The position numbers were made by a program, and so were the translations under genes. From the NCBI GenBank assembly GCA_965222605.1, contig OZ244960.1:5568001-5632000 (forward strand): DNA of 64,000 bases, written 5' to 3'. Positions 1-26,051 of the stretch are shown here, one piece after another. The stretch is from Candidatus Latescibacterota bacterium. Lineage in GTDB: Bacteria; Latescibacterota; UBA2968. The notes under the pieces are model-generated. The model was not told the origin of the DNA and ran no database searches. It saw only the letters and a program-made list of their open reading frames with translations. The number at the start of each line of letters is the position of its first letter. Positions within the stretch are counted from its first letter, which is position 1.

Positions 1-584
1 GGACCCCAGACATCTCCATGCGTTGTCATCCACCGCACTGATGTTCGTGTTAGGTGCTTGTAGGTGGTTTGCAACTCGGTCTGAAGGGTCTTGATGGCGT
101 CGTGGAGATCGCCAGGAAGAGAACGGGAAAGAGCTCGCCGAAGTCTGACCTCCACGTAGTCAGTGAGATCTATCTTCCGCATCCTGGATTTGTCGAACTT
201 CTCCGATGCCAGATGAATCTTAGCAAGTCCACGTCCCACCGCACCCAATCGGTGGAGGTGACGAGAGCTACAAGGTTCCCCACCGAGATCAGTCTCCACA
301 GAGAGCACAACAGCATCTCCGATCGCGATACACAAATCTCCGGAGAGAGTGGGGACAATCTGAGGGACAGGGGCATCGTTTGTTGAGAGATGATTAACGA
401 ACTCGACAACTTCCTCGGCACAGAGCTGACCCCGTGCCCAGTTCAATCGCGCGAAGAACCTCGCCCCATTCTTCTTGAAGGTGAAGAGGCGTATCGTGCC
501 TGGGACCGGTATGAGAGAACCATCGAACTGCCAAGCTGACCGAAGGGCCTCCTGGATTCTCTCCTTTGGTGGAATCTGATCCAC
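1..584 (-). CDS. Phosphotransferase (APH / type II homoserine kinase-like), runs off the window edge
   Basis: Manual translation from GTG 584 after a GGAGGAG RBS is open to the edge and contains GRGLAKIH and the Brenner-type THGDVWG motif; absent from the ORF track. Confidence 0.75.
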   Translation of the reverse strand, partial: MDQIPPKERIQEALRSAWQFDGSLIPVPGTIRLFTFKKNGARFFARLNWARGQLCAEEVVEFVNHLSTNDAPVPQIVPTLSGDLCIAIGDAVVLSVETDLGGEPCSSRHLHRLGAVGRGLAKIHLASEKFDKSRMRKIDLTDYVEVRLRRALSRSLPGDLHDAIKTLQTELQTTYKHLTRTSVRWMTTHGDVWG

Positions 585-638
585 TAACTGCTCCTCCGAT
601 ACATGGTTCTCAACAGCCTCTTCGAAGACCAACATGCC

Positions 639-734
639 GTATAACGATACGCCGGTTTGCGAACCCCGAGCTTGTCGAGGGGTTGCCGAAGGCCAAGGCG
701 CGAATGCGCCGTAGCGCGAACCGTGCTGTTAGGC
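639..734 (-). repeat. attC-like recombination site (family A)
   Basis: GTATAAC(639-645)...GTTAGGC(728-734); arms GCCGGTTTGCG / CGCGAACCGTGC pair with an extra base; close paralogue at 13959. Confidence 0.85.
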
Positions 735-789
735 GAAGGACAAAGCCCGAAACCGGGCACGGACGTGTTATGTGAAGTCACCTCTCTCA

Positions 790-1341
790 CTACGAGGCTA
801 TGGCAAGGCGTTTCGCTCCGATTCCTGCCTTGATCGCTTCGTGGGCCAGGGGTGAGAGTAAGGGCTTCCCTCGCTCAACTTTGGTCTCGAACGTGTCAAG
901 TTCCTCGACCGTGAAATGAGATCTCGGCATGAATTCCAGATAGTTGGCAACCTCCATTTCAATGAGGTCGCGAAGATCCGCTTGCGTGACGGGTATGTTC
1001 TCCTCGTGAACACGGTTCCACACAGTTGCCCCCTCCTTTCCTAATCCTTCGAAAAATCCACTGCGGATCGAAACGCTGAAGAGAAAAGCCAATCGCTCGG
1101 CCCTCTCGCCAATCACTTCGCGGATGCGTTGCCGATCTTCAAGGGACGCTGACTCTGTCTTGTAGGATTGCGTGCCGTAGATACTATGAAACAAACCTCC
1201 AAGACACACGGCCTGGTCGTTGCCCCAGTCCTGGAGGAAATCGTGTGTTCCCCGAAGATGGTCTAATAGATCCCCGCCGCTATGAGGGTTTTTGTCAGTG
1301 TTCAGGTCGAGTAAGAGGTCCAGGTGATTCTGTTCGATCAT
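790..1341 (-). CDS. DUF6817-like HD-domain protein (cassette gene)
   Basis: HSGGDLLDHLRGT and GLFHSIYGT motifs; on the minus strand bounded by GTTATGT (1377-1371) and complementary ACATAAC (773-767). Confidence 0.75.
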   Translation of the reverse strand: MIEQNHLDLLLDLNTDKNPHSGGDLLDHLRGTHDFLQDWGNDQAVCLGGLFHSIYGTQSYKTESASLEDRQRIREVIGERAERLAFLFSVSIRSGFFEGLGKEGATVWNRVHEENIPVTQADLRDLIEMEVANYLEFMPRSHFTVEELDTFETKVERGKPLLSPLAHEAIKAGIGAKRLAIAS

Positions 1342-1415
1342 TACGACTCCCCATGTCTTATAGTGATTTCACATAACGGTTGTAATATACGATTTGGGAT
1401 GCCTTCAATCGCTAA

Positions 1416-1886
1416 TCAGACTGAGGTCAGGTCAAGAGCAAAGTGAACCTCGCCGCCAAAGTGACCATCCTGATGGTGTGTGACACGAAAACCGAACCGT
1501 TTGTAGAACTCGATAACCCCAGACCAGGTAGATGTCGTTTCCAGGACAACGCGTTGAAATCCCAACTCTTTAGCCTCTTGGCAGAGCCTTTTCAGTATTT
1601 GCTTGCCAATTCCTCGTCTCCGAAACTCCGGTGACACGGACATTCTGACTATCTCTGCTACCTGGTCTGACTTCGGAATCAGCGCGCCCGAGCCAATAAT
1701 CCTGCCATCAAACCAGGCGACCAGAAATGTGGCATCATCGTAGTAGGCACCGATGTCATTCAAATCTGGATTTAAGATTGGGTCAATTTCTCCCCAGTGT
1801 TCGGCAAGGCCAGCTAAAATTAGGCTCTGGACAGCTTCTTGATCCTCGCTCTCAAATGGCTTTATCGAGATTTGCTGTGCATCCAT
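1416..1886 (-). CDS. GNAT family N-acetyltransferase
   Basis: RMSVSPEFRRRGIG motif A and FYKRFGF. Confidence 0.9.
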   Translation of the reverse strand: MDAQQISIKPFESEDQEAVQSLILAGLAEHWGEIDPILNPDLNDIGAYYDDATFLVAWFDGRIIGSGALIPKSDQVAEIVRMSVSPEFRRRGIGKQILKRLCQEAKELGFQRVVLETTSTWSGVIEFYKRFGFRVTHHQDGHFGGEVHFALDLTSV

Positions 1887-2141
1887 TACCTTTTGAGACA
1901 GTCCTTTCCTCTATTGTAGGCGTTGCGCCTATCAAGAGCAAGATAAATGCTGAAGAAAATCTCCGTTAGAATAATCAAAGTCGTTCACGTTGCTTAAGTT
2001 TGGGGAGAATGTACTTCCGCAAGATAGGATTCAGAGGCCCTTTTGCGTGATCAGAATTCCTGAGATACGAACGATAGTCTTCATTCTTTTCCTCATGATA
2101 ATAGTAATACACTCGTTTTGGCTGCCGATTGCCTCCCGTAT

Positions 2142-3224
2142 CTATTCACCATTCGACAGCCGTGCGACCTCCCCGCGCAGTCGGGCATTCTCTGTTACGA
2201 TCTTGCCAGCGCGAACGTCTGCCTCCCTGAACTTTGCCATGAAAACCGCTCCGTTTGGAGTGCGATTGTAATCATAAATGATGTAGATTGTTCCATCGCC
2301 TGCCTGCACGCCATCGGGATAGGTGACCTTCTCCCGTTCATCCAGCATGAGTCCGCCCTGCCACGTCTGGCCTTCATCGTCGGATACAAACGCCACCAGT
2401 TTCTCGCGTCTCGTCTTTTCGGTCATGGATCCATGCTTGACCAATAACAATGCGCCAGATTTCAAACGACGCACAAAAAACCGGGTGGTCGGATGTGGTA
2501 TTTTAAGACGTTCAACGGGCGACCAGGTCTTTCCATGATCGTAAGAAACTGTCTGGCCGATGCCACGGACCCGCACCAGCATCCAGAGTGAGCCATCCTT
2601 TCGCTCAACAATCATCGGCTCATCAGGGCCCCGCAATTCCGCGTTAACAATATTGGCTGTACCACGAAGCTCGAAGGTCTTGCCCCGATCGCGCGAGGCG
2701 TAGACCTTGATGCTGTTGTCAGTCTTCCATACAGACGAGGTAAAGAGCCAGTCGCCATCCGATAGTACCGTTGGTTTGTTCAGCATAATGCCATTACCCA
2801 ATCGACGCGGTTTCGACCATGTTGGGTTCTCAGCATCTGGATTGCTGGTGACAATGGTCCATATGCCGTAACGGCCATCTTGTTGACCAAAACTCTGTCC
2901 CCAGAAAACCCACATCCGATCCTGGGGGTCGATCCAGATGGAAGCGGACATAGCCCGAACGTCCCTACAGGGCAGTACTATGACTTTTGGATCTGACCAG
3001 GTGTGCCCATCGTCATCACTCCGAATCAAGACCTGGTAGTTTCGCGGGCTTTCGACATCCCGCCCGTAAACTGCCCACAACCGTCCCTTCGTGGTGCGTT
3101 CGATGCCTGGCACGCCCTGTCGTGTGGTCGGCGGCACATGCTGTTTCCACGGATTGACAATGACCGTCGCCGGTTTGAGTGCAATATCGGCATCACGCTG
3201 TTTCTCAGGTTTTGCATCTGTCAT
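2142..3224 (-). CDS. Sialidase family (BNR/Asp-box repeat) protein
   Basis: Asp boxes SDDDGHTW, SRDRGKTF, SYDHGKTW, SDDEGQTW. Confidence 0.85.
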   Translation of the reverse strand: MTDAKPEKQRDADIALKPATVIVNPWKQHVPPTTRQGVPGIERTTKGRLWAVYGRDVESPRNYQVLIRSDDDGHTWSDPKVIVLPCRDVRAMSASIWIDPQDRMWVFWGQSFGQQDGRYGIWTIVTSNPDAENPTWSKPRRLGNGIMLNKPTVLSDGDWLFTSSVWKTDNSIKVYASRDRGKTFELRGTANIVNAELRGPDEPMIVERKDGSLWMLVRVRGIGQTVSYDHGKTWSPVERLKIPHPTTRFFVRRLKSGALLLVKHGSMTEKTRREKLVAFVSDDEGQTWQGGLMLDEREKVTYPDGVQAGDGTIYIIYDYNRTPNGAVFMAKFREADVRAGKIVTENARLRGEVARLSNGE

Positions 3225-3856
3225 GTTGTTTTCTTCAATTGTTTTGGGACGTGCGATTCCCGCAAAAACGCAAAGGTCACAAAGAGTGCAAGGAATGCCG
3301 GAAGGACTGCCACCAACAATGGATAGGCCATTTCGCCTGTCATCCCGAGTGCTACGACTCCAAGCAGCGGAGCGATCAACAAAGAGAGATCCATAAGGGA
3401 ATCAAATGCCCCCATGGCGGGGCCAACCACGAAGGACAGTCCTTGACTGCTTCTGAGAATCCCGAAGAACCGTCCTGGAGCATCCTTGCCAAGCGTTGAA
3501 GTGATTGCCAGGAGAGCGGGCATCGAGATGGCATCAGCGACACCACCGAGGACTCGAAGAACTACCAAATGGACCCAGTCGCTCGCAATCAGACACAAAA
3601 GAGATGAAACTGAACCGAGGGCCGTGCCTACCAGAATGAGACGCTGCCGTGAGAAGCGATCCGCAAGGGCACCCGCGAAGAATTGGGCGACTACCACTGT
3701 GGCGAGGGCAGCCGACACGACTATGGGTATCTGGTACATTTCAGCTCCGAGTTCCGTGCTGAGTCTCGGCAATACGGGAAGGCTGACGAGAGTACTCAGG
3801 AAGATGATGAACGCCATCAAGCCGATGGCATACATCCTATGCAGGTCAGATGTCAT
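3221..3856 (-). pseudogene. MFS transporter with large internal deletion
   Basis: MFS motif A GALADRFSRQ; only 211 aa, N-terminal helices joined to C-terminal helices near VVGP/AMGAF. Confidence 0.7.
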
Positions 3857-3865
3857 TACCCTTCC

Positions 3866-4207: not shown

Positions 4208-4237
4208 TCACTATGTACCTGAAAATACCGGCATGGC

Positions 4238-4345
4238 ACTTAACGTTCTCGGCACCCACAAACCTGGCATAGCCAGGTTGGGCGAATGACCGAGGCTGGG
4301 GGCCAAGGCGCGACAGCACCGCAGACCAACACCGACGTGTTAGGC
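4238..4345 (-). repeat. attC-like site
   Basis: ACTTAAC(4238-4244)...GTTAGGC(4339-4345), inner hairpin AACCTGGC/GCCAGGTT, 11 bp after the GrpB stop. Confidence 0.75.
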
Positions 4346-4356
4346 GTTACACTGTG

Positions 4357-4911: not shown

Positions 4912-4926
4912 TTTATCCTGATATTA

Positions 4927-5335: not shown

Positions 5336-5402
5336 ATGACATTTCTCATAGAATAAAATTTTCTGATTCATTTTACGGACCTGAATCGGCCCTTTCCATT
5401 GC

Positions 5403-5455
5403 ATTTAACGTCTTGCCGGTTTGCGAACCCGCGCAGTGGTAACTGATTGTTATAT
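5403..5455 (-). repeat. Shortened or chimeric attC-like site (family A left arm)
   Basis: ATTTAAC...GTTATAT; shares GCCGGTTTGCGAACCC with 639 and 13959. Confidence 0.6.
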
Positions 5456-5480
5456 GGCGTTTGATCCAAATGCTGGAATT

Positions 5481-5996: not shown

Positions 5997-6035
5997 GATC
6001 GTCTCCTCAAGAGGTAGGTAAGAAGCCTCCAATTC

Positions 6036-6087
6036 ATTCAACAGTAACCCCGTGTTAAGCGTCTGGTGCAGCTTGGGGTGGTTGGGC
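6036..6087 (-). repeat. Possible short attC-like site
   Basis: ATTCAAC...GTTGGGC with ACCCC/GGGGT and AAGC/GCTT pairing, intergenic. Confidence 0.4.
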
Positions 6088-6130
6088 AAAGTCTTGACAG
6101 GACGCGCACTTCTCGTTGCTTTGCGATTCA

Positions 6131-6841: not shown

Positions 6842-6857
6842 GTTGAATGGCCTCCTC

Positions 6858-7037: not shown

Positions 7038-7062
7038 ATGGCTCCCTATGCCTTATCTATTA

Positions 7063-7963
7063 ACCTTTGGTGCTAGTAGATAAGAAGTTGTAAGTCGCCA
7101 GAAGTTTACCTATGCTGAATGAGTTAGCACCTCATTCATTCACAGCAGGGAGGTAAACTTCATGACGACTGAAATGCTGATCATTGACCTGTTCTGTCGG
7201 GTAGATGATCAAACGCAAGACCTTGAGAAACATCCTCAAGCCAAGCTCTATCCCAGCGAAGTCATCACGTTGGCCTTGCTTTTTGCGATTAAAGGGGTGG
7301 GCAATCGCGCCTATTATGATTGGCTGATAAACGATTGGCAGCACCTGTTTCCTAACTTACCTCATCGCACGCGCTTGTTTCGCCTCTTTTTAAGGCATCA
7401 ACACGCCACAAGCCGATTTTTAGCCGAAAAGAGCGTGTTGGGCATCATTGATAGCTATGGCATTGAGTTGATTCATCCGATCCGAGAAGGCAGAAGTCCT
7501 GCTCAGATCGGGAAGAAAGGCAAATCGAATTATCGCTGGATTGTCGGTGGCAAGCTCTGTCTGTTGATCAATCAATGGGGTCTCATCGTGGATTGGGACT
7601 GTCAGACAGCTAATGTTCACGATACCACCTTCCACCATCTCATCAAGCAGGTGCAATCAGACATGGTCGTCTTTGCCGATGTCGGCTTTCAAAAAGCGCA
7701 AGACAACCCAGAAAACTTAAAAATCTGTCCGCGTGGCACTTGGAATGAGCGCATGGTGGTTGAAACCATCTTATCTATGATGACGCTCGTGTGGCATTTT
7801 AAGAAAGTCATGCATCGGGTCTGGAGCTATTTTGCAATGCGATTGGCTTTTACCATGGCCGCCTTCAATATCTTGGTACAATGGCAGGGCTTTAAACCCG
7901 ATGAAGATGGGTTCATTAACCTTGCCATCGCACACTTCAGAATATAACACTAGCACCAAAGGT
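7063..7963 (+). mobile_element. IS982-like insertion sequence
   Basis: 15-bp TIRs ACCTTTGGTGCTAGT / ACTAGCACCAAAGGT; 5-bp target duplication TATTA (7058-7062, 7964-7968). Confidence 0.85.
7162..7947 (+). CDS. DDE transposase (IS982-like)
   Basis: IIDS, TANVHD, FADVGF, ERMVVET motifs. Confidence 0.85.
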   Translation: MTTEMLIIDLFCRVDDQTQDLEKHPQAKLYPSEVITLALLFAIKGVGNRAYYDWLINDWQHLFPNLPHRTRLFRLFLRHQHATSRFLAEKSVLGIIDSYGIELIHPIREGRSPAQIGKKGKSNYRWIVGGKLCLLINQWGLIVDWDCQTANVHDTTFHHLIKQVQSDMVVFADVGFQKAQDNPENLKICPRGTWNERMVVETILSMMTLVWHFKKVMHRVWSYFAMRLAFTMAAFNILVQWQGFKPDEDGFINLAIAHFRI

Positions 7964-7986
7964 TATTAGCGATCTCAGCAGGTCGT

Positions 7987-8419: not shown

Positions 8420-8486
8420 CTTGCGGTCTCTCTTGCCGTGGCGAATAAAGTGCAAACGCATTAAGGCTACTACCGCGCTGTTAGCC
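8420..8486 (-). pseudogene. Remnant of histidine phosphatase 5-prime end plus attC half-site
   Basis: Matches 13841-13888 joined to 14042-14057; GTTAGCC at 8480-8486. Confidence 0.8.
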
Positions 8487-9620: not shown

Positions 9621-9627
9621 TTCAGAA

Positions 9628-10941
9628 TCAGGCATCAAAATAACTGAGTCGATCGCCTTCTGCTTCCCAGAGTTCTTCAAACATTTTTCGGATGTCGGGT
9701 AAAGATACGACGGATGCAGTAAGTGGGTCCAATGCACAAGCATGGAATGCCGCTTCTTTATCTTTTTCCATTGCAGCTTTGACGGAGAGTTCTTGTACGG
9801 CGATGTTGGTCATGTTTAATGCGGCGCACTGAGGCGGGAGTTCACCAACGTAACAGGGATGAATGCCTTCTCTGTCGACCATGCAGGGTACTTCAACACA
9901 GCATTCGTCGGGAAGATTGGTGATAGATCCGTTGTTCATGACGTTGCCGTTGAAGACAAATGGGACACCTGTGATTTTTGCTTCTATGATTGAAGAAGCG
10001 TATTCGTGGGATACTTGCAGTTTTGGGACTTCGGCTTCGGTATCGTTGTCTGTGATGCCTGTGTCTTTCATCCAGGAACGTTTGCGGCCTTCGGGCAATT
10101 CCATGTAGACGGGATCACGTTCTGGCAGGTTGTAGATGTCCCGCAATTCCTGAGTGCGCTGGAAGTAGGGGAGGTATTCTGAATTGTGTCGGGTGCTTTC
10201 GGTGACAAAATAGCCAAATTGCTTCATCATCTCGACCCGCACCAGGTCGTCTTTGAAACTGGGATGGGTGTCGACGGCTTTGAAGATGCGAGGGTACAGG
10301 TCTTCGCCGTCTTTGTTGAATTTTAGAATCCAGGCCTGGTGGTTAATCCCTGCAACGAGGTAACTCACATCTTCGTAAGGAACGTCAATGCCATTTGCCA
10401 GTTTTTTTGTTGTGCCCTGTACGCTGTGGCAGAGGCCGACGTTTTGGATGGATGAACCGATAGAATGCATCCAGGTGAGCATGGCCATGGGGTTGGTATA
10501 ATTTAACATGAGTGCATCGGGGCAGTGTTTTTCCATGCTTTTGCAAAATGCTAGGTGCTCGTGTGCGGTGCGAAGATAACGGAACACACCTCCTACACCT
10601 ACTGTGTCGGCGACAGTTTGGTTAATGCCGTACTTTTTGGGGATGTTGATTTCAGATGCGTAAGGTTCGCCCCAGTAGGCTGCGCCCCCAATGGATACGG
10701 CAGTGACGACAAAATCTGCGCCGGGCAATAATTCTTCGCGATCAGTGCTGGCGATGCATTTGCCAGGGAGTCCATGGCCATCAATGGCGCGGTTCACGTA
10801 ATCGTGCACCTGAGTCAATCGCTCTTCGTTGATATCACAGAGTGCGATTGTGGAATCGTTTAATAATTCACGAGATAAAATATCGAGGGACAGTCGGCTT
10901 CCGAATCCACTGCCAGCACCAATGATTACAATTTTTGCCAT
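9628..10941 (-). CDS. melA: GH4 alpha-galactosidase / alpha-glucosidase
   Basis: KIVIIGAGS, NYTNPM, GLCHSVQGT, AGINHQAW. Confidence 0.85.
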   Translation of the reverse strand: MAKIVIIGAGSGFGSRLSLDILSRELLNDSTIALCDINEERLTQVHDYVNRAIDGHGLPGKCIASTDREELLPGADFVVTAVSIGGAAYWGEPYASEINIPKKYGINQTVADTVGVGGVFRYLRTAHEHLAFCKSMEKHCPDALMLNYTNPMAMLTWMHSIGSSIQNVGLCHSVQGTTKKLANGIDVPYEDVSYLVAGINHQAWILKFNKDGEDLYPRIFKAVDTHPSFKDDLVRVEMMKQFGYFVTESTRHNSEYLPYFQRTQELRDIYNLPERDPVYMELPEGRKRSWMKDTGITDNDTEAEVPKLQVSHEYASSIIEAKITGVPFVFNGNVMNNGSITNLPDECCVEVPCMVDREGIHPCYVGELPPQCAALNMTNIAVQELSVKAAMEKDKEAAFHACALDPLTASVVSLPDIRKMFEELWEAEGDRLSYFDA

Positions 10942-12275: not shown

Positions 12276-12344
12276 ATTTTCTGCTTTCTCTGCTTCAAGT
12301 GCAGTTCCGTGTGCCATTGATGTCTTGGAGGTTGGGACGCTTTC

Positions 12345-12481
12345 GTCTAACGGCCTGCGGTTGCCGAAGTGGCAATGCATCAGGAAACAGATTACCTCTT
12401 TCCCATCAGCCAACCCATCACTCACGGCCACTTGGGTCGGGGCGACCAAAGGGAGCGCAGCCGGCAACCGTCTTGTTGTGT
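12345..12481 (-). repeat. attC-like site (family B)
   Basis: GTCTAAC...GTTGTGT; arms CGGTTGCCG / CGGCAACCG and AAGTGGC/GCCACTT; paralogue at 22494. Confidence 0.8.
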
Positions 12482-12597
12482 GCTGTGCCAGCCTGGGGTG
12501 GGGAGCGGACGAACAACACTTACAGAAATCCCGCCAGATAGGTCGTCTAGCGGGAACCGAAAAAATTTGACATACCGCGTCTATGATCGCCACAGCC

Positions 12598-13139: not shown

Positions 13140-13282
13140 ACATTTACTCCATTTTCAATCTGCCTGATGGTATAACCTCAGCCAATATTATAAAAAAATA
13201 GTGCTATCCATTGGAATAAACAAATGGTTTTCTGGTTTTTGTTTTTTTGTAAACGTGGTGAGCAGTAGACGCCTGTCCAAAG

Positions 13283-13882
13283 TTAATGCTCAAATAAGAT
13301 GGCCCCAACAGCGTCGAGTCGATATTGGGTGCCATCGTATGCAATCGTCGTAACGGAGCATTCACGGATTATTTCACCACTGTATGGGTCATTGCAGAAT
13401 TTCGGACTGATGCGACTCAGTTCTTCAGACAAAAAAACGTTGAGAAGGAAGTCTGCCAAGATACCGCCATGGGTTACCCCTATCACAGTATCTTTGGATG
13501 ACTGAAGATAGCAATCGGAAACAAATGCTTCAATGCGTCTGCCAGCCTCAATGCTTGAATCGCCAACACTGGGCCGGTAATCTCGTTCTGTGGTACAATG
13601 ATCCCACTGAGCTATGAATTCATCGAAAGATTGGCCTTCGATGTCACCCCAATTCATTCGTTCACGTAGCCGTGAATCTTCAGTAACTTCAAGATTCAAA
13701 ATTGTGGCGATGATCTCTGCTGTCTCTCTTGTTCGTGCCAGTGGACTGCTGAAGATTCGTGCGATGCCGTTTGACGCTAACTTCCTGGCGAGTAGTTCTG
13801 CCTCTTCTTGACCTTTTGATGTCAATGAAGGATCACCGATCTTGCGGTCTCTCTTACCGTGGCGAATAAAGTGAAAACGCAT
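13283..13882 (-). CDS. Histidine phosphatase family protein (copy 1)
   Basis: RHG, SSPLARTRETA, THGG. Confidence 0.9.
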   Translation of the reverse strand: MRFHFIRHGKRDRKIGDPSLTSKGQEEAELLARKLASNGIARIFSSPLARTRETAEIIATILNLEVTEDSRLRERMNWGDIEGQSFDEFIAQWDHCTTERDYRPSVGDSSIEAGRRIEAFVSDCYLQSSKDTVIGVTHGGILADFLLNVFLSEELSRISPKFCNDPYSGEIIRECSVTTIAYDGTQYRLDAVGAILFEH

Positions 13883-13958
13883 TAAGGCTGCCTGTCTTCC
13901 GATTTTTCTTGTGCATAATTTGCCGGAGTGGGGTTGGGAGAACTCCTGCGCCGCTTGC

Positions 13959-14057
13959 GTGTAACGTTTCGCCGGTTTGCGAACCCCGAGCTTGTCAAGG
14001 GGTTGCCCGATAGGGCCAAGCGGCGTATGCCGCGTAGCGCATACCGCGCTATTAGCC
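13959..14057 (-). repeat. attC-like site (family A), one core box mutated
   Basis: GTGTAAC...ATTAGCC (paralogue at 8480 has GTTAGCC); close to 639-734. Confidence 0.85.
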
Positions 14058-14090
14058 GAAGTGTGAGTGACTTCGATGGACATGAGATCA

Positions 14091-14427: not shown

Positions 14428-14482
14428 GAGAGCCTCATCATGAAAATTGGTGAGTATGCACGATAAAGACGGACGACATTTC

Positions 14483-14489
14483 GGCTAAC
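14483..14489 (-). repeat. attC core half-site starting the NUDIX cassette
   Basis: Reads GTTAGCC on the minus strand, complementary to the inverse core GGCTAAC after the NUDIX gene. Confidence 0.6.
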
Positions 14490-14570
14490 GGCCTGTTAAC
14501 CGCTGGTAGCCCCATCACGGCGAAGCCTATCACGGGCAGAGATAAAGCGCGCACCATCAGGCTTCTGATT

Positions 14571-15326: not shown

Positions 15327-15389
15327 TTCACATCTCCAAAATTTCGAGGTGGCGGAGAGTGGTTCTTGCGCGCTTTCAGTTTTTGCCGC

Positions 15390-15520
15390 TTGCGGTCAAA
15401 AACTTTTTGAACTGACCGTTCAGTCAAATGCCGTCCCGGTTTGGCACCCGAAAATAGCCATGTTTGGGGTTGATATTGGCACTTGTAATCTTGCACCGCC
15501 TTCTGGGCGAATGTCGAATC
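15390..15520 (-). pseudogene. Tyrosine recombinase (XerD/integrase-like) internal fragment
   Basis: AVQDYKCQYQPQTWLFSGAKPGRHLTERSVQKVF resembles the segment between box I and box II. Confidence 0.7.
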
Positions 15521-15530
15521 CTGCCCAAAG

Positions 15531-16130
15531 TTAATTCTCAAATAAGATAGCCCCAACAGCGTCGAGTCGATATTGGTTGCCATCGTATGCAATGGTCGTA
15601 ACGGAGCATTCACGGATTACTTCACCACTGTATGGGTCATTGCAGAATTTCGGACTAATGCGACTCAGTTCTTCAGACGAAAAAACATTGAGAAGGAAGT
15701 CTGCTAAGACACCGCCATGGGTTACCCCAATCACAGTATCTTTGGATGACTGACGATAGCAATCGGAAACAATTGCCTCAATGCGTCTACCAGCCTCAAT
15801 GCTTGAATCGCCAACACTGGGTCGGTAATCTCGTTCTCTGTTACAACGCTCCCACTGAGCTATGAATTCATCGAAAGATTGTCCTTCGATGTCACCCCAA
15901 TTCATTCGTTCACGTAGCCGGGAATCTTCAGTAACTTCAAGATTCAAAATTGTGGCGATGATCTCTGCTGTCTCTCTTGTTCGTGCCAGTGGACTGCTGA
16001 AGATTCGTGCGATGCCGTTTGATGCTAACTCCTTGGCGAGTAGTTCTGCTTCTTGTCGCCCCTCTGAGGTCAATGAAGGATCACCGATCTTGCGGCCTCT
16101 CTTACCGTGGCGAATAAAGTGAAAATGCAT
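15531..16130 (-). CDS. Histidine phosphatase family protein (copy 2)
   Basis: Near-identical to copy 1. Confidence 0.9.
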   Translation of the reverse strand: MHFHFIRHGKRGRKIGDPSLTSEGRQEAELLAKELASNGIARIFSSPLARTRETAEIIATILNLEVTEDSRLRERMNWGDIEGQSFDEFIAQWERCNRERDYRPSVGDSSIEAGRRIEAIVSDCYRQSSKDTVIGVTHGGVLADFLLNVFSSEELSRISPKFCNDPYSGEVIRECSVTTIAYDGNQYRLDAVGAILFEN

Positions 16131-16207
16131 TAAGTCTGCCTGTCTTCCGGTTTTTCTTGTGCACAATTTGCCGGAGTGGGGTTGGGGGGAACTTTTGTGT
16201 CGCTTGC

Positions 16208-16288
16208 GTGTAACGTCCAGCCGTGCACGAACCGCGCAGGGGTTGGACGAAGGCCGAATGGACGAAGCCATGCACAGTCGTGTTATGC
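16208..16288 (-). repeat. attC-like site
   Basis: GTGTAAC...GTTATGC with GTGCA/TGCAC arms, 15 bp after a stop codon. Confidence 0.75.
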
Positions 16289-16303
16289 GGTGTGCTCACT
16301 TCG

Positions 16304-18541: not shown

Positions 18542-19647
18542 GTTGTATGCCTCCAGGATAATGCCGGTGGTCCTGCCCAAAGTTAATACTCAAATAACTG
18601 ATGTTACGCAGTTTTAAGAATTTGTAGTTCATCAAAAGCATACCGAATGGCCTTGAGATAGAGTCTTGACCTGAGGGCAAAATGATTGAGGTGATGTTTG
18701 ACGCGCAGGCCTTCCAATTGAGCGGCGGCATAAATAGCCATAAAACAATGATTGCTTTGTGTACGCACGCGCCTTGTTGGGGACTTGGATAGGGCGGCAT
18801 TGGACTTGAGGGTTTTATGAAACGTCTCCACTTTCCATCGTTTTTGATAGATCGTTTCGATGGTTTCGCCATCACAAGTAAGATCACTACAAGCCAGAAA
18901 CATCTCCCCTGTGCTATCATCTTTGTTTGTAAAGACTTGCCGGATTAAAAGGACGGGAAAATCTAATCCTTTTATCCATGCTTGCACAGGCGTATCTTCT
19001 GTCAGGTTTTGAGCATCAATGCGTGCGAAACGTCCATCTCGTTTATCTTCATAGCTCAAGGCAACCGTCCTGTTAGATTTTATTGCGACAACGAAGTGCT
19101 TATCCAAGCTGTTGCGAATAAACTGTAAGTTTTCCTTTGCTGAGAACCAACTATCGGCCAATACATAGCGATATTTCAAGCGATTTTGCTTGCACACACC
19201 TAACATGTCCCGCATCAGGTCATTTTTTGTGACCAGGCTCTTGCGCTTGACGCGACGGGTCTTCACATCGGTATAGAGGGCCGGTTTGGTGATCAACTCG
19301 TAAGTCACGGGTAAGCTGACATCGCTTGCGTGATAGACACAATTAAGCAGATTGATACCCTTGACCGTGCGATTTTGACTGTGATCATAGTGCCAACAGA
19401 TTAAGTCATTCTCATCTGTATAAGGCTTTTCCTGGATCGTATCATCAAAGATGAGCACGCCATCATCCTGTTCGATGTCACGGATCATACCCTTAACCTG
19501 TCGCCACAGCGTTTTGCCATTATAGTCTGCTTGTGAGAGAAAACGCGTGACCCGATCATGGCTTATGCGGCCTTCCAACAGCGCGGATAAACCCGTTGCT
19601 GTGGTCGCGCCAAAGGAACTGAGGAGGTAATCGCTATACAATTCTAA

Positions 19648-20574
19648 GAAGCTGTTTTAAAACTATTGTGAGTGAAGAAAAGAGTTGAAAAAGCGTATTC
19701 ATCTGTCCAAATTCAGGTTATGCAAATCACCCTGAAACGAAAGGACAAAGATGAATACGCACAGGGAATATCCGACAAATGTCACCCAAGCGCAATGGCA
19801 ACTGCTGATCCTCTTGCTGCCTAAAGGTAAATGGCGAAAAGGGGGCTCTGGACGCCCACCTGCCAATTTGCAACAAGTGTTCAATGGCATCCTGTATCTG
19901 ACGAAGACCGGCTGCCAATGGCGCATGCTGCCTCCTACCTTTGGCTGTTGGCAGACCGTGTATGGCTATTTCAATCGTTGGCGCAAGCAAGGCATCTTTG
20001 AACGGGTGCAACAGGTGCTCACACAAAAAGAACGCAAACGACAGGGACGCAAGCCTACCGCATCAGCAGGCTGCATTGACAGCCAAAGTGTTAAGACAGC
20101 AACCCAAGGAAAGTCAAAGGGTTACGATGCTGGCAAAAAGGTCAATGGACGCAAACGCCATCTTCTCGTTGATACCCTCGGACTCGTCATTAGCACCTAT
20201 GTCTCACCTGCCAATCTCCAAGATCGAGATGGCCTCAAGCAGGTGATCAATCAGTATTTTGATAGCGGACAGACACGCTTACGCAAGCTATGGGTCGATG
20301 GCGGCTATCGCGGCGAAGACCTTAAAGAATGGGTCGCTGCTAAGAAGCACACACATAAGATTGATCTTGAGGTTGTCACCCCAAAAGGCAAAGGCTTTCA
20401 ACTCGTCAAACGCCGGTGGGTCGTCGAGCGCACCTTTGCCTGGTTATTTAATTTTCGCCGACTATCAAAGGATTATGAAGACTTGACCGACAGTAGTGAA
20501 GCCTTTATTTACATCGTTATGATTTACCTCTTAATCAACAGACTCGCTTAAGCGAGGGGTTTTAAAACAGCTTC
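19648..20574 (+). mobile_element. IS5 family element (IS1031-like)
   Basis: 16-bp TIRs GAAGCTGTTTTAAAAC; TAA target duplication. Confidence 0.9.
19751..20551 (+). CDS. IS5 family transposase
   Basis: TGCQWRMLP, IDSQSVK, GRKRHLLVDTLG, RWVVERTFAW. Confidence 0.95.
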   Translation: MNTHREYPTNVTQAQWQLLILLLPKGKWRKGGSGRPPANLQQVFNGILYLTKTGCQWRMLPPTFGCWQTVYGYFNRWRKQGIFERVQQVLTQKERKRQGRKPTASAGCIDSQSVKTATQGKSKGYDAGKKVNGRKRHLLVDTLGLVISTYVSPANLQDRDGLKQVINQYFDSGQTRLRKLWVDGGYRGEDLKEWVAAKKHTHKIDLEVVTPKGKGFQLVKRRWVVERTFAWLFNFRRLSKDYEDLTDSSEAFIYIVMIYLLINRLA

Positions 20575-20696
20575 TAAGAGTTTTTTGTCCATATTTTTAA
20601 TCTACCACCATAATTTGCAAGGTCACAGGGATGACAAAACCCATACGGGGGGCTACATCCTTGGAATATAAAACATTATTCAACCGGTGCGTAACA

Positions 20697-21293
20697 TCAG
20701 TCAAATAAGATAGCCCCAACAGCTTCGAGGCGATATTGGTTGCCATCGTATGCAATGGTCGTAATGGAGCATTCACGCATTACTTCACCACTGTATGGGG
20801 CATTGCAGAATTTCGGACTAATGCGACTCAGTTCTTCAAACGAAAAAACGTTGAGAAGGAAGTCTGCTAAGACACCGCCATGGGTCACCCCAATCACAGT
20901 ATCTTTGGATGACCGAAGATAGCAATCGGAAACAAATGCTTCAATGCGTCTGCCAGCCTCAATGCTTGAATCGCCAACACTGGGCCGGTAATCTCGTTCT
21001 GTGTTACAACGCTCCCACTGAGCCATGAATTCATCGAAAGATTGTCCTTCGATGTCACCCCAATTCATTCGTTCACGTAGCCGTGAATCTTCAGTAACTT
21101 CAAGATTCAAAATAGTGGCGATGATCTCTGCTGTTTCTCTTGTTCGCGCCAGTGGACTGCTGAAGATTCGTGCGATGCCGTTTGATGCTAACTCCCTGGC
21201 GAGTAGTTCTGCTTCTTGTCGCCCCTCTGAGGTCAATGAAGGATCACCGACCTTGCGGTCTCTCTTACCGTGGCGAATAAAGTGAAAACGCAT
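20697..21293 (-). CDS. Histidine phosphatase family protein (copy 3; last codons altered by the IS)
   Basis: Near-identical to copies 1-2; original 3-prime end lies at 18583-18597. Confidence 0.9.
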   Translation of the reverse strand: MRFHFIRHGKRDRKVGDPSLTSEGRQEAELLARELASNGIARIFSSPLARTRETAEIIATILNLEVTEDSRLRERMNWGDIEGQSFDEFMAQWERCNTERDYRPSVGDSSIEAGRRIEAFVSDCYLRSSKDTVIGVTHGGVLADFLLNVFSFEELSRISPKFCNAPYSGEVMRECSITTIAYDGNQYRLEAVGAILFD

Positions 21294-21370
21294 TAAGCCT
21301 ACCTATCTTCCGATTTTTCTTGTGCACAATTTGTCGGAGTGGGGTTGTTGGGTAATTCTGCGCCGCTTGC

Positions 21371-21463
21371 GTGTAACGGTCGGGACCTGCGAAGCCGCCC
21401 TGTTTTTTAGGGCGGCTTGGGTGGCATCGGGCTGGGAGGATGTACGCAGGTCCCTTGTTATCG
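21371..21463 (-). repeat. attC-like site
   Basis: GTGTAAC...GTTATCG; arms GGGACCTGCG / CGCAGGTCCC; inner AAGCCGCCC/GGGCGGCTT. Confidence 0.85.
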
Positions 21464-21631
21464 GCAGTCGCGAAGGGGTGGTTTCGCCACTTTCAACCCC
21501 TGAGATCAGGGCGTGAATACCGCGAGCGTCATAGACAATCTGCTTTTCTGGTCTTCTGCCTTTTCAGGCATGCAGAGGTTCCATCTCAATTCTTCAGATT
21601 CACCCCCGACTGAACACAACTCGGTGGAAAA

Positions 21632-22351: not shown

Positions 22352-22493
22352 GTATTCCTTAGAGATTTTTCAGGTTGGTCGATTTGGTGAAAAACTCGAA
22401 GAATCAGAAAAGTTCGAGAATATGATGGGGAGTGGGTTCTGTTTTTGTTTTTGCACGCTAAAGGGTTTTTCTGGGTGGTGTTGGGGCGATTGC

Positions 22494-22634
22494 CCATAAC
22501 GTCTCGCCGGTTGCCGATGTGGCCGTGATCAGTTAAACAAATCGCTGCTTTTACAATCAGGAAACACAAAGCTTCACGAGCCATTTGGGTCGGAGCGACC
22601 GCAGGGAGCGGAGCCGGTCAACCGGCTGTTACAC
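22494..22634 (-). repeat. attC-like site (family B)
   Basis: CCATAAC...GTTACAC; arms GCCGGTTG / CAACCGGC; similar to 12345. Confidence 0.85.
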
Positions 22635-22709
22635 GCAGTTTTTTGGGTGGCACCTACATCAAATTACAATCGGGGCGGGAATAGAGCAGGCGACATCAGC
22701 ATGTTTTTT

Positions 22710-25208
22710 TTATTCATTCCGCAAGGCATCTACAGGATTTGATCGAGCTGCCTTCATTGTCTGGAAACTCACTGTGATCATGGCAATAAGGAAAGCCAAG
22801 ATACCACTTAACATAAAGAACTCAAATCCAAGATCTACCCGATACGCATAATTCTGAAGCCACTGCCACAGGGCATAGTAGCCAATCGGCCAGGCCAAGA
22901 GATTTGCAAGTGCGACCAACTTTGCAAAATCACTGGATAGCAACATAACAATATTGAATACAGACGCTCCCAATACCTTGCGAATGCCGATTTCTTTTGT
23001 ACGGTATTGCGCACTCAATGTGGCCAACCCAAGTAACCCCAAGCAGGCAATCAAAATACCAAGGGTTGAAAAGAAACCAAAAAGATAGCTCAGTTTTCTT
23101 TCATTTTTATAGATTCGATCCAAATTCTCATCAAGAAAAGAAAATGTGAATGGACGATTGGGTATATACCTTTCCCAGACTTTTTGTACAAATGCCAGTG
23201 TTTGAGATAAATCTTCAGATTTGACCTCTAGGTATAGTAGCCTTGCCTCATGAAATTCTGCAACCAATACGAGTCGTCCGATTTTTTCGTCAAGAGGTTT
23301 GTAATGAAAATCTTTGACAACACCGACGACTGTGCCGGAGCGTAGTCCATCTGGGTAGAACGTGCCTCCAACCTTCCAGGCAAATCGTTTCCCTATTGGA
23401 TTTGTCCAACCCAATTGCTCGACCGCTGTTTCATTCAAGATAAACTGCTCGTCTAATTTTTCCCTCAGTCTTTGCGGGTTTGTTGTTTCGGCATATGATC
23501 GCGTGAAATTCCGGCCTGATACGCATTTAATGCCATAGAAATCTAGAAAATCCTCATCCACGATTATCACATCCATACTGTACGTGGATTTTCCTTCGGG
23601 ATGGAATGTCTCTACTGTTGCTCCTTCTCCAACAGGGCCACGGGTGGTTGTTGCTCTGAGAATATTGGGATGCGTCGTGAATGCCTGCTTGATGGCGTTG
23701 TATTGGCTCTTGAAAAGCGTGGGATTGATCATCTGGTTGCTATTCGCTGCCTCAAAAATTGGAACTTCAATAATCTGCTCGTGGTCGAATCCCAGATTCT
23801 TATTTCGAAGAAATTTCTGTTGACTGTAAACACCCCAAGTGACAACCATCAATAAAATGGCAAGAGCAAATTGTCCTACAACCAAACTCTTGCGAAGCCG
23901 AGTAGAGACGTTTGTAGCGGATTTACCTCTCAACATTGAAACAGGGCGAAATGTCGATAAGACAAATGCCGGATAACTCCCTGCCAGAATACCGACGATG
24001 AATATAAGACCGAAAAGGCTGAGCAATAACTGGGTTGTGTTGACATTGAGTGTAATAGCGCGATCAAAAAACGAATTGAAAGTTGGCAATGCCAATTCTA
24101 CCAACACCAAAGTCAAGATAAGCGCCATAATAAGCGCCATACAAGCAAAAAATATAGATTCGCCCAAAAATTGTGTGATGAGCTGCAATCGGTTTGCACC
24201 GACAACCTTACGAAGCCCGACCTCTCGCCTCCGCCCAATTGCACGAGCAGTTGTTAGGTTTATAAAATTCACACAGGCAATTACTAAAATAAAAATAGCA
24301 AGCAAAGAAAACAAATACACATTTTGAATGTCACCATGAGGTTTACTGGTCTCTGGAGTACCACGATTCTCAATTTTGATGCCATAATCATGATTGGAGT
24401 ATAGATGGATGCGGTTTAGGGGCTGCAAATGATATTGAATGTTATTTGCAGCTGCTTCGCCCATGTATTTCGGAATCAGATCTGAAAGTTTGCCTTCAAG
24501 TTGATTCGCATCATAACCTTCTTTAAGCAAAATATAGCTTTCTACAGGACGCCCCCCTCTCGGTTTCCAAGCCATCCATTTTTCTTGCCATCGCCCATTT
24601 TTAGTCGCCGATAAAATATCGAACCGAATGGTCGTCTGCTCAGGCATATTTTTTAAGACGCCTGTAACGTGATGCGCATAATCTTTGTCGTATTCCTCGA
24701 TCAGAATGGTTTTGCCAATCGGATTTTCAGTGCCAAACAGTTTGTGTGCAAGTCTTTGAGTGATTAAAACGGAACCTGGTTCTGAGAGAACCGTTTCGGG
24801 ATCGCCTTGAATCAGTGGAAAGTCAAAAACCTGTAGAACATTCTCGTCTGTAAGGCAAAAGGCTTGTTTGTATATTCTCTTATTGTCAGCAATTATTGTT
24901 CTTTGCCAGCGATGGATACGCAAAGCCTCAGAAATTTCAGGATATACATCCTGATTCAAGACTTCTACGAGACCTCCTAATGTGCGCTCACTAAAAGCTG
25001 CCTGGTCAACTGTTTTAGTCTCTCGAATCACCCTGTAAATTTGATCTCGATTCCTTTGGTTCTGATCAAAACCTAATTCATAGTCGATATAGAGGCCTAT
25101 CAGGATACAACAAGCCAAACCAATGGCTAATCCGATAATGTTCAGAGCTGAGTAGAAACGATGGTTTATCAGGTTTCTCAGCATTATTTTGAGATAATTT
25201 TTCAGCAT
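22710..25208 (-). CDS. ABC transporter permease (MacB/FtsX type)
   Basis: MLKNYLKI, IACVNFINL, KEIGIRKVLGAS, NPVDALRNE. Confidence 0.9.
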   Translation of the reverse strand: MLKNYLKIMLRNLINHRFYSALNIIGLAIGLACCILIGLYIDYELGFDQNQRNRDQIYRVIRETKTVDQAAFSERTLGGLVEVLNQDVYPEISEALRIHRWQRTIIADNKRIYKQAFCLTDENVLQVFDFPLIQGDPETVLSEPGSVLITQRLAHKLFGTENPIGKTILIEEYDKDYAHHVTGVLKNMPEQTTIRFDILSATKNGRWQEKWMAWKPRGGRPVESYILLKEGYDANQLEGKLSDLIPKYMGEAAANNIQYHLQPLNRIHLYSNHDYGIKIENRGTPETSKPHGDIQNVYLFSLLAIFILVIACVNFINLTTARAIGRRREVGLRKVVGANRLQLITQFLGESIFFACMALIMALILTLVLVELALPTFNSFFDRAITLNVNTTQLLLSLFGLIFIVGILAGSYPAFVLSTFRPVSMLRGKSATNVSTRLRKSLVVGQFALAILLMVVTWGVYSQQKFLRNKNLGFDHEQIIEVPIFEAANSNQMINPTLFKSQYNAIKQAFTTHPNILRATTTRGPVGEGATVETFHPEGKSTYSMDVIIVDEDFLDFYGIKCVSGRNFTRSYAETTNPQRLREKLDEQFILNETAVEQLGWTNPIGKRFAWKVGGTFYPDGLRSGTVVGVVKDFHYKPLDEKIGRLVLVAEFHEARLLYLEVKSEDLSQTLAFVQKVWERYIPNRPFTFSFLDENLDRIYKNERKLSYLFGFFSTLGILIACLGLLGLATLSAQYRTKEIGIRKVLGASVFNIVMLLSSDFAKLVALANLLAWPIGYYALWQWLQNYAYRVDLGFEFFMLSGILAFLIAMITVSFQTMKAARSNPVDALRNE

Positions 25209-25389
25209 GTGTCTGCCCCCAAAGAAGTGATTTCGGTTATTGGCAATTTCAGTTCTCATGAAATCAACATAATGGATGCACTCTGGGGATTATTGAGGTA
25301 GAGTATGAAAAGGAGGTTGGGGTGGAAGGCTGTTCTGTCTTTGCCTGCCTGCTACAGGTGTTTTGTTTTTCTGGGGCGGGGAAAATTGC

Positions 25390-25469
25390 GTATAACTACG
25401 GGATTAACGAACTGTTACGGTAATTCATACCAAATCTATGTATCTCCGAGTAGGAAGATGTTGTTAGAG
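25390..25469 (-). repeat. Possible degenerate attC-like site
   Basis: GTATAAC...GTTAGAG between the TA pair and the permease; weak arm pairing. Confidence 0.35.
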
Positions 25470-25497
25470 ATAGTGAAGATACCTGATGATAGCAGTA

Positions 25498-25800
25498 TTA
25501 CACTTTATTGCGCGCCTCTAACCATCGCTTTAGCGAACGTTGGCTCTCTCCTGAAGGTCGGCCAGCCCATACATTTTCGACGCTAATATCCTCATCCAGA
25601 TCAGGCCAATGGATGCCTTCACCTCGACCGATGAGTCGCCAATTATTGCGCTCTTGAGGAGTGCCATGCAATAGACGAGGATACCATTCTAACGGGACGC
25701 TTATGCTTCGCCCATCAACTAAGTCTATCATTAGAGACTCATCGTCGATAGAGATACGCTCTGCAAGCGTAGGCTGAATTTCAATCGTTGAAATACTCAT
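25498..25800 (-). CDS. DUF2442 protein (putative TA partner)
   Basis: DGRSISVPLEWYPRL, GIHWPDLDEDISV. Confidence 0.9.
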   Translation of the reverse strand: MSISTIEIQPTLAERISIDDESLMIDLVDGRSISVPLEWYPRLLHGTPQERNNWRLIGRGEGIHWPDLDEDISVENVWAGRPSGESQRSLKRWLEARNKV

Positions 25801-26017
25801 TCCAAAACTCCACGATATCGTCTTGTTTTTCCTCAATAATCCTTCTGATACGCCTCAGATCAGCACTGCGAAAACCTCTGCTTCTCTGTAATCGGATAGG
25901 TTCTATCCAAAACTTTGCGATAGAATCATCTCTTTCCACATGAACATGAATCGGTTCATCCCGGTCACCTGCATAAAAGAAAAATCGGTAGGGACCATTT
26001 GAAAAAATAGTTGGCAT
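25781..26017 (-). CDS. DUF4160 protein (putative TA partner)
   Basis: YRFFFY, EPIHVHV, AKFW. Confidence 0.9.
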   Translation of the reverse strand: MPTIFSNGPYRFFFYAGDRDEPIHVHVERDDSIAKFWIEPIRLQRSRGFRSADLRRIRRIIEEKQDDIVEFWNEYFND

Positions 26018-26051
26018 GTAATATATATCATTGTCCTGCAATGATGTAGAT

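Follow-up and report, generated by a model that had tools for sequence, protein, structure and literature searches.

An integron-type cassette array in a Candidatus Latescibacterota genome that has probably lost its recombinase

Introduction

How does a gene-cassette array come to stand in a chromosome with no integrase at its head, and can such an array still be recognized as part of an integron? The question is raised by a 64,000-nucleotide stretch of a Candidatus Latescibacterota genome (the window, G000:C1:5568001-5632000, from an assembly that consists of a single contig of 6.34 Mb and is 98.7% complete). The original prediction for this DNA, made from its letters, described positions 1-26050 as an integron-like cassette array of at least 26 kb. 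Nearly all of its genes, apart from those of insertion sequences (IS), were said to lie on the minus strand and to be separated by imperfect palindromes resembling attC sites. The array was proposed to be either a cluster of attC sites that has no integron-integrase (CALIN) or an atypical integron with its recombinase elsewhere, in a poorly studied lineage, which Candidatus Latescibacterota is; a literature search found no paper on integrons in Latescibacterota.

The analysis reported here indicates, with a probability of roughly 85%, that window positions 1-25449 together with 453 nt to the left of the window are the cassette array of a sedentary chromosomal integron-type element, whose recombinase is lost and which is now decaying. 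Cury et al. 2016 (PMC4889954) give the loss of intI as one origin of CALIN and mention intI pseudogenes near 15 of 279 CALIN. They also mention 21 recombinases other than IntI near attC sites, four of which fall between IntI and Xer.

The close relatives of the window genome are metagenome-assembled genomes of Candidatus Latescibacterota, designated here by G numbers (the window genome is G000), and most of the public runs that hold parts of the array carry the label sponge metagenome.

Sites of the array

The palindromes were searched with a covariance model, R2, built from 13 sites beside the recombinase genes of relatives and from 0 sites of the window genome, so that they could be tested without circularity. 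With the filters off, R2 recovers in the window all eight palindromes put forward as strong candidates (639, 4238, 5403, 12345, 13959, 16208, 21371 and 22494), at 17.7-57.4 bits and every one on the + strand. All eight read 5'-..TAAC..(50-135 nt)..GTTA..-3' on this strand and form long imperfect hairpins; the R'' and R' boxes of attC are present in 8 of 8, one of which has ATT for GTT. The last site of the array lies just outside the window (Table 1). At E<=5 the window has two further matches, one to a mini-site of 23 nt at 14481-14503 (E 0.3-0.5) and one at 60038-60075 (E 3.5). R2 gives nothing at E<=1 in the 38 kb to the right of the array and no further site in the 40 kb to the left of the last attC. 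The weaker candidates did not hold as attC sites, those at 6036 and 17765 having no R2 match and the one at 25390 being the core of the attI described below. The array itself is real, but its limits had to be redrawn: it starts to the left of the window, where the last attC reaches 453 nt beyond the edge, and its attC-bearing part ends at the attI at 25385-25449.

Several of the sites are related to one another. The site at 637-736 has its R' box, GTATAAC, at 639-645 and its R'' box, GTTAGGC, at 728-734, folds at -24.1 kcal/mol on the + strand versus -20.5 kcal/mol on the complement, and is 82% identical to the site at 13958-14061. The left arm of the short site at 5401 is homologous to 13955-13986, and the two long-type sites at 12343 and 22492-22636 are homologous to each other (nhmmer E 7e-9). 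Reduced sites are also present, namely two sites of bare R boxes (1371-1386 and 14481-14503) and one fused half-site (745-773), the latter similar to the 5' arm of a G026 site (L019, 15632). The bare site at 1371, to which R2 gives no match, is likely, from its sequence, a collapsed attC. The complementary ends claimed for two of the cassettes are present, ACATAAC/GTTATGT at 1371-1377 and 767-773 and GGCTAAC/GTTAGCC at 14483-14489 and 8480-8486; taken as bare 7-mers, they are no commoner than chance.

The more stable fold is that of the + strand in 7 of 7 window sites, as expected if attC folds on its bottom strand, and that of the equivalent strand in 10 of 12 sites of relatives. In an alignment (A10) of 43 sites from 14 loci, 86% of the cells pair and, of the 11 stem pairs, 10 have changed on both sides. 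Covariation scores 0.455, a value that 0 of 500 shuffles reach, versus 0.169 after shuffling and 0.05-0.08 when slid. The four R-box pairs are standard in 40-43 of the 43 sites, and TAAC and GTTA are near-invariant. The R box TAACG/TGTTA has a G-T wobble at its inner end in 40 of 43 sites, which becomes a C-A mismatch on the opposite strand. In 41 of 43 sites, a bulge of 3-4 nt comes directly after TAACG on the AAC arm of the bottom strand. The opposite arm has no spacer; its one extra feature, found in 28 of 43 sites, is a bulge of a single base two pairs further in than the R box.

Other approaches were less useful. An earlier model, R1, made from two window sites, was too sequence-specific, retrieved just 2 further sites at E<0.05 and was replaced by R2. 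The MAFFT alignments A2 and A3 of the window sites had their arms out of register, and no model was built from them. An energy-only scan of 19,886 AAC...GTT candidates with R-box pairing forced returned 1796 non-overlapping matches at <=-18 kcal/mol with no enrichment, and was dropped because long stretches fold at low energy everywhere. An inverted-repeat finder with 8-nt seeds listed no attC site, since the stems are interrupted.

Head of the array and loss of the recombinase

The right end of the array is marked by a 65-nt attI core, to which G005, G009 and G039 have a homologous stretch after their recombinase gene. Six rows were aligned (the window, G009 and two copies each from G005 and G039); 6 of 6 are conserved up to GTAGTTA and diverge after it, and the core is 100% identical to G005 over 57 nt. 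Beyond it lies a conserved flank, with 26116-32000 syntenic with G009 and G005 at about 91.5%. In these two genomes a recombinase gene is situated between the UVR-motif gene and attI and is transcribed toward the array. The head expected at about 26 kb is thereby placed, with attI and the congeners' recombinase gene both at the right end; as predicted, the window has no integrase there, the terminator-like hairpin and the core UVR-motif gene taking up this position.

Three states of this locus occur among the window genome and 20 congeners. The recombinase gene is present in the first, intact in G005 and N-terminally deleted in G009. The second is a clean deletion that joins the hairpin to attI, seen in G013 and G002, and four more genomes give similar match patterns. 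In the third, found in the window and, arranged in the same way, in G019, a DUF4160/DUF2442 module occupies the place of the gene; several other genomes have internally deleted versions. In the window this module replaces the recombinase gene and the upstream part of attI, and it is found at other loci in at least six congeners at 94-95% identity. A relic of the recombinase gene persists inside the array (Table 1), in a region that blastn matches to G005 at 99% over 121 nt. From this comparison of sequences, the CALIN-like state thus appears to have arisen when the recombinase gene was deleted from a conserved locus.

G005 itself has two attI copies, at about 10229-10362 and about 19020-19143 of L022 (G005:C51). 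The recombinase gene is followed by one of them; the second stands ahead of the MacB cassette, which in the window is the first cassette, and at least five attC separate the two copies. Canonical cassette insertion would not duplicate attI.

No integron integrase was found in a search for tyrosine recombinases over the whole genome. The integron-integrase profile TIGR02249 scores at best 88 bits against a cut-off of 265, and the 10 matches to PF00589 lie no nearer than about 100 kb. The G005 enzyme retrieves by tblastn over the genome only two Xer-like genes (32% and 29% identity) and the 54-aa relic in the array. An intI with the additional domain beside the array, as required for a complete integron, is found neither in the window nor in the genome. 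The array has eight window sites at E<=0.1 and one just outside, with no integrase, and so can be assigned to CALIN by our own model R2, the class being defined by the attC model of IntegronFinder.

Of the two states first proposed, CALIN therefore fits operationally. The other, an active atypical integron served in trans by a recombinase encoded elsewhere, is improbable. According to Cury et al. 2016 (PMC4889954), an integrase encoded elsewhere might mobilise the cassettes of CALIN; in the window genome, the PF00589 matches include intact genes of 313, 308, 527, 342 and 321 aa. However, none of these genes resembles the array-head enzyme of the congeners, the best tblastn identities being those of the Xer-like pair and 26% for the next. 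Furthermore, the array is in decay, with three IS copies, gene fragments and multi-gene units. The array does not seem to be served from elsewhere, because its cognate gene is visibly deleted at the locus and no related enzyme is encoded in the genome.

Two tyrosine-recombinase fragments (85 and 140 aa, one with a stop) lie on the + strand at G000:C1:5467899-5468895, about 100 kb to the left; by tblastn they are unrelated to the array-head enzyme.

Orientation of the cassettes and distribution of the sites

The direction in which the cassettes are read is best seen from three histidine-phosphatase copies (c13, c15 and c20). They are homologous through their 5' leaders, and the homology is lost exactly at GTGTAAC|G, each copy standing beside an unrelated attC; a G|TT crossover would put the break at this point if the cassettes are read on the minus strand. 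G026 has a dense array with one ORF (open reading frame) per site, opposite to the R2 strand, and the site begins 14-15 nt past the stop codon in three cases. The paralog boundary, the G-T wobble and the G026 layout together identify the + strand as the bottom strand and place the head of the array at the right. Consistent with this, every Pfam-supported gene at 3-26041 lies on the minus strand, as first noted, except the IS transposases at 7162-7947 and 19751-20551; with the window cassettes on the minus strand, each attC folds by its + strand. The R2 sites, their shared strand and the cassette boundaries thus bear out the attC cassette architecture that had been proposed.

The reverse orientation, with the + strand as the top strand, the genes antisense to their cassettes and the missing integrase to the left, draws on one feature of the sites. 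Their 3-4 extra bases lie on the AAC arm of the + strand, which in a canonical attC would mark the top strand. In the bottom strand of canonical attC, Nivina et al. 2016 (PMC5027507) describe the extrahelical bases on the arm opposite AAC. The attC of aadA1 from plasmid R100, taken here as a reference, agrees, with spacers of 5 and 6 nt and extra bases opposite AAC when the bottom strand is considered. Nevertheless, we regard this orientation as even less probable than action in trans. The paralog homology stops at the left R box and not at the right one, and the right end is where both attI, whose G|TTA is read on the minus strand, and the congeners' recombinase gene are situated. The ORFs of G026 run opposite to the R2 strand, each followed at once by its site, and the conserved wobble, like the lower folding energies, speaks for folding of the + strand. 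In addition, R2 matches the R box alone of the aadA1 attC, and does so better on the bottom strand (9.5 bits) than on the top strand (6.1 bits).

In a genome-wide search that scored 150 of its 1743 first-look candidates, R2 finds at least 11 sites at E<=1, all on the + strand and all within 5,389,307-5,589,465. A direct cmsearch of 304 kb around the window returns the same 12 sites at E<=10. With the eight window sites as query, nhmmer finds strong homologs (E<=2.5e-8) in the array only; five matches outside it are weak (E 0.086-0.82), and one of these is the APH-cassette attC just left of the window. A motif scan (TAAC...GTT[AG] with a stem of at least 8 bp) gives four matches in the 27.1-kb array against 0.2 expected from 47 genome-wide, a 20-fold excess. 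Repetitive extragenic palindromes (REP) and the mosaic elements that they form (BIME) are known by many dispersed copies; here a genome of 6.34 Mb has its R2 sites all within 200 kb and on one strand. The hairpins are not REP-like, because the sites are all confined to 5.39-5.59 Mb, and the genome-wide scatter that would have spoken against the original prediction is not seen. That the hairpins are REP-like repeats or terminators in a hypervariable island with no site-specific recombination can practically be set aside, for although hairpins downstream of genes can act as terminators and the 40 kb to the left of the array are likewise mosaic among congeners, yet with no R2 site, the sites are restricted to this region, have invariant TAAC/GTTA ends, share one strand, mark exact homology breakpoints and adjoin IntI-like recombinase genes in 6 of the 6 relatives that have such a gene.

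Three further R2 sites on the array strand, at G000:C1:5389307-5389376, 5430256-5430342 and 5437313-5437399 (31.8-38.6 bits), lie 130-178 kb to the left of the window, two of them with 7 kb in between. Possibly they are stray cassettes, or what is left of an array that used to be larger.

Recombinase of the clade

The recombinase of G005 (L011:1216-2343) has 376 aa and all catalytic boxes. The best alignment of the clade recombinase to a solved structure is to the Vibrio integrase VchIntIA (PDB 2a3v, E 1e-41). In place of the 67 residues of IntI4 at 173-239, the clade recombinase has about 25, which is about 42 fewer than PDB 2a3v. With the G005 enzyme, TIGR02249 gives 214 bits against a cut-off of 265 and the XerA/integron-integrase model 216 against one of 220, and the array-head recombinases of the congeners score 195-241 bits on TIGR02249, below its cut-off. 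The spacing from GK..K.R to H.LRH is 66 residues versus 107 in IntI1. Taken together, the shorter segment, the scores below cut-off and the shorter spacing lead to the conclusion that the IntI-specific additional domain is absent. At its N-terminus the clade recombinase has an extra region of about 95 aa with no Pfam match. The family is large, with thousands of proteins, covers several phyla at 50-60% identity and lacks the insertion in 13 of 13 aligned members, which have in common about 70 N-terminal aa that Pfam does not match.

All six relatives with the recombinase gene (G005, G009, G021, G025, G026 and G039) have R2 sites less than 6 kb from it. Many genomes with 8-46 R2 sites, for example G029, show no such gene. 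The gene is co-directional with the cassettes in G005, G009 and G025 and divergent in G026, which belongs to the same taxonomic order, so its orientation varies within the clade. Canonical IntI above cut-off is found in 17 of 168 genomes of the phylum. Around eight canonical IntI genes (four genomes and four short contigs, 167 kb), there is one R2 match and no cluster by either R2 or the motif heuristic. Metagenome loci with recombinases lacking the I2 helix (I2-less) have R2 matches in 4 of 80 cases (seven sites, E<=1), many of these contigs being short and R2 being lineage-specific. What looks like a cluster of sites at L059 is, with the exception of one site, AT-rich noise.

In a 24-row tree the canonical IntI are monophyletic (seven rows, 100/100) and stand in an unresolved group with 15 I2-less proteins. 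A 100/100 branch separates IntI and the I2-less group from the two Xer proteins of the window genome; the tree is unrooted and its outgroup thin. Escudero et al. 2016 describe the I2 helix as specific to integron integrases and link it to the extrahelical bases; they cite Messier and Roy 2001 for the additional domain being necessary for activity. A literature search by title and abstract found no description of an array-head integrase that lacks the additional domain.

Another recombinase of this general type occurs in G036, where a 314-aa IntI-like protein with no insertion is encoded in seven copies (one at L015, G036:C1:1447449-1450952) and at least 66 R2 sites are present. Five of the six copies checked are within 3 kb of or inside R2 arrays, and the sixth has no nearby site among the matches listed. 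The gene beside this recombinase encodes a protein whose N-terminus we take to be like that of an IS91-family transposase.

Content and decay of the array

According to Pfam, the array encodes an APH-family kinase, DUF6817, GNAT, GrpB, DUF5069, two methyltransferases, NUDIX, PhyH, GH4, a metallophosphatase, three histidine phosphatases, a MacB/FtsX permease and the pairs DUF433/DUF5615 and DUF4160/DUF2442, together with fragments of MFS, aldo-keto reductase and esterase genes. This repertoire looks typical of cassette arrays. Cassettes common to the window and G009 are 96-99% identical and stand in another order.

The array is a decaying remnant. Besides the gene fragments and reduced sites, it holds three IS copies, and public runs show that two of these are variable (24 runs are listed, all as contigs, and joints were examined in four). 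The IS at 7058 is polymorphic (Table 1), and the IS at 19642-20571 is missing from contigs of all four runs, in which 19641 is joined to 20572. The 27-nt 3' flank of the pair of adjacent IS at 18598-20571 is repeated at 18571-18597. In run X23 four contigs part from the window sequence just left of 13962.

Table 1. Coordinates of the array, its sites and its flank (window positions unless a contig is named)
Feature	Position	Strand	Evidence or remark
Last attC, 375-453 nt left of window	G000:C1:5567547-5567625	+	R2 41 bits
attC, DUF6817 cassette	637..736	+	R2 57.4 bits, E 3e-10
Putative half attC (R''-L'' arm, ACATAAC ACGTCCGTGCCCGG), fused upstream of the 637-736 site	745..773	-	Inferred by sequence reading
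Mini-site, R boxes alone (ACATAAC G GTTGTAA), between GNAT and DUF6817 genes	1371..1386	+	Sequence reading
attC; cassette with 113-aa ORF, MFS fragment, BNR, GNAT and others	4236..4347	+	R2 31.9 bits, E 9e-5
attC, short or truncated, downstream of 217-aa ORF	5401..5457	+	R2 24.9 bits, E 0.003
IS, DDE transposase, 906 bp, polymorphic	7058..7963	+	Pfam; 7057 joined to 7964 in contigs of 3 of 4 runs
Long-type attC, 141 nt	12343..12483	+	R2 25.4 bits, E 0.002
Histidine-phosphatase cassette copy c13	13272..13967	-	Pfam His_Phos_1
attC, NUDIX-fragment cassette, R'' box ATT instead of GTT	13957..14059	+	R2 37.8 bits
Mini-site GGCTAAC GGCCT GTTAACC, R boxes alone, weak	14481..14503	+	R2 15.3 bits, E 0.32
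Recombinase relic, 54 codons in frame (residues 259-312 of the G005 enzyme)	15356..15517	-	tblastn 81%, E 1e-20
Histidine-phosphatase paralog c15	15520-16216	-	93-95% identity among copies
attC; cassette with histidine phosphatase c20, methyltransferase and 477-aa gene	16206..16290	+	R2 52.4 bits, E 4e-9
Two adjacent IS copies (DDE_5, DDE_Tnp_1), just past the stop of c20	18598-19641; 19642-20571	-; +	Pfam
Histidine-phosphatase paralog c20	20701-21378	-	93-95% identity among copies
attC; cassette with 239-aa ORF	21369..21465	+	R2 29.7 bits, E 3e-4; 10-bp perfect stem
Long-type attC, MacB/FtsX permease cassette (first cassette)	22492..22636	+	R2 17.7 bits, E 0.099
attI core, 65 nt; minus strand ...ATTACCGTAACAGTTCGTTAATCCCGTAG|TTATAC	25385..25449	-	Alignment with G005, G009 and G039
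DUF4160/DUF2442 two-gene module in place of the recombinase gene	25494..26044	-	Pfam
Terminator-like hairpin after the UVR-motif gene, 13-nt arms, 100% complementary	26052..26088		Conserved in G013 and G002
UVR-motif gene, conserved core flank	26123..26872	-	Pfam UVR; matched in 21 of 21 genomes of the genus

Some features around the array are observations in their own right. At L017 (20 kb left of the window), blocks of 0.1-4 kb are shared with five congeners at 84-99% identity in other orders and spacings, those of G009 being spread over more than 35 kb; the locus is a hypervariable island with no recognisable recombination sites. The GC skew changes sign at the array head (about 26000-27000), being negative at 1-26 kb and strongly positive from 27 kb. 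To the right, a 12-nt unit (AAAAGTTCGGAG) is repeated in tandem at 56825-57055, where there is also a higher-order repeat of 66 nt, and 32192-32962 holds six to seven diverged repeats of 123-144 nt in a coding region, likely that of a repeat-domain protein.

Discussion

Several points weigh against an integron-type array. One is the geometry of the sites: the sites fold with R boxes, as the original prediction supposed, but the canonical pattern of a 5-6-nt spacer on both arms and extrahelical bases opposite AAC is absent from the 43 aligned sites. Rfam gives 0 matches at its gathering thresholds. The array is sparse, with about 10 sites for some 30 genes and several units of two to eight genes, and much of it, with its gene fragments and three IS copies, is unlike a series of one-gene cassettes. 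The cassette boundary is common to the histidine-phosphatase copies at the 5' end only, their 3' ends having no recognisable attC, and the homology of two NUDIX copies is lost 15-18 nt short of the nearest TAAC. No cassette excision is seen, in that none of the 15 joints listed from the four public runs connects R box to R box; contigs are unable to show rare circles, and the absence of such joints says little either way. As to the models, the seed sites of R2 were chosen by the author's own heuristic, alignment A10 was fitted to R2, which favours the pairing counts, and the genome-wide search scored only part of its first-look candidates.

The sequence of events in the element could then be as follows. 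In the ancestral layout, as retained by G005, the UVR-motif gene would be followed by the recombinase gene directed toward the array, by attI and by the cassettes on the same strand, each cassette consisting of an ORF and then its attC hairpin site. The cassettes were presumably moved by a recombinase of the congener type. By analogy with integrons, this enzyme would cleave the folded + strand at 5'-TAA|C in the R' box, and excised circles would insert at attI, at the G|TTA at about 25388-25391. The window genome has since lost the recombinase gene; the DUF4160/DUF2442 module sits at its place, and the attI core and the relic are what remains. The roughly 10 remaining units would be frozen, since the recombinase gene is gone and no related enzyme is encoded elsewhere, and would change by IS insertion, deletion, duplication and homologous exchange only.

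How far the element resembles known systems differs from one system to another. The window is like a CALIN in having at least two co-oriented attC-type sites, cassette genes and no integrase near them or in the replicon, with the relic and the attI core remaining. It is unlike a CALIN in that its sites deviate from the canonical spacer and extrahelical-base geometry, and in that the lost enzyme, judged from the congeners, would not be called IntI by IntegronFinder, because the intI_Cterm region is absent. With the Vibrio cholerae superintegron it has in common a fixed chromosomal locus shared by the genus, related attC sites (sub-families at 82%), pairs resembling toxin-antitoxin systems, mostly unknown or accessory functions, an attI crossover at G|TT and cassettes that are common to and shuffled between species. 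Unlike VchIntIA, the clade recombinase has about 25 residues instead of 67 and an extra N-terminal region, and its gene is co-directional with the cassettes in the genus. The sites share with the canonical aadA1 attC of R100 the R'' box RYYYAAC and the R' box GTTRRRY, even TAACG...TGTTA, as well as an imperfect hairpin whose terminal structure varies, the better folding of the bottom strand and a position after the ORF; they are unlike it in the 3-4-nt bulge of the AAC arm, with no opposite spacer, in 41 of 43 Latescibacterota sites.

In the integrons of the Treponema denticola type, the integrase gene is oriented as the cassettes, and the integrases are described as bona fide IntI with the additional domain. 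The recombinase gene directed toward the array in G005, G009 and G025, and probably once in the window, resembles this type, from which the clade recombinase differs by lacking the additional domain.

Two defining features of integrons, the additional domain of the integrase and the extrahelical-base geometry of attC, thus appear to be missing in the clade as far as sequence can tell. The two absences seem coherent, an I2-less enzyme being paired with sites that have no extrahelical bases. It is tentatively suggested, with the balance somewhat against it, that the Latescibacterota arrays, with the window as an orphaned case, are a natural integron-like system whose close IntI relative never had or lost I2 and to which the folded sites would be adapted, the bulge of the cleaved AAC arm determining the choice of strand in place of extrahelical bases on the other arm.

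Conclusions

The window itself is modest in what it adds: it documents how a cassette cluster comes to be without an integrase, while an attI core and a relic of the gene persist. Of 20 congeners, one (G005) has the array-head recombinase gene intact and another (G009) has it in truncated form. If this pairing of enzyme and sites is functional, such integrons would escape tools that require an IntI-specific profile, or be classed by them as CALIN, and the reservoirs known for gene cassettes could be extended to uncultured Latescibacterota. On the same condition, a natural enzyme would allow a test of how the recombination of single-stranded sites arose from Xer-like ancestors. Should it be true that these enzymes recombine single-stranded hairpins, they would represent a living intermediate, or a reversal, between Xer-type and integron integrases.

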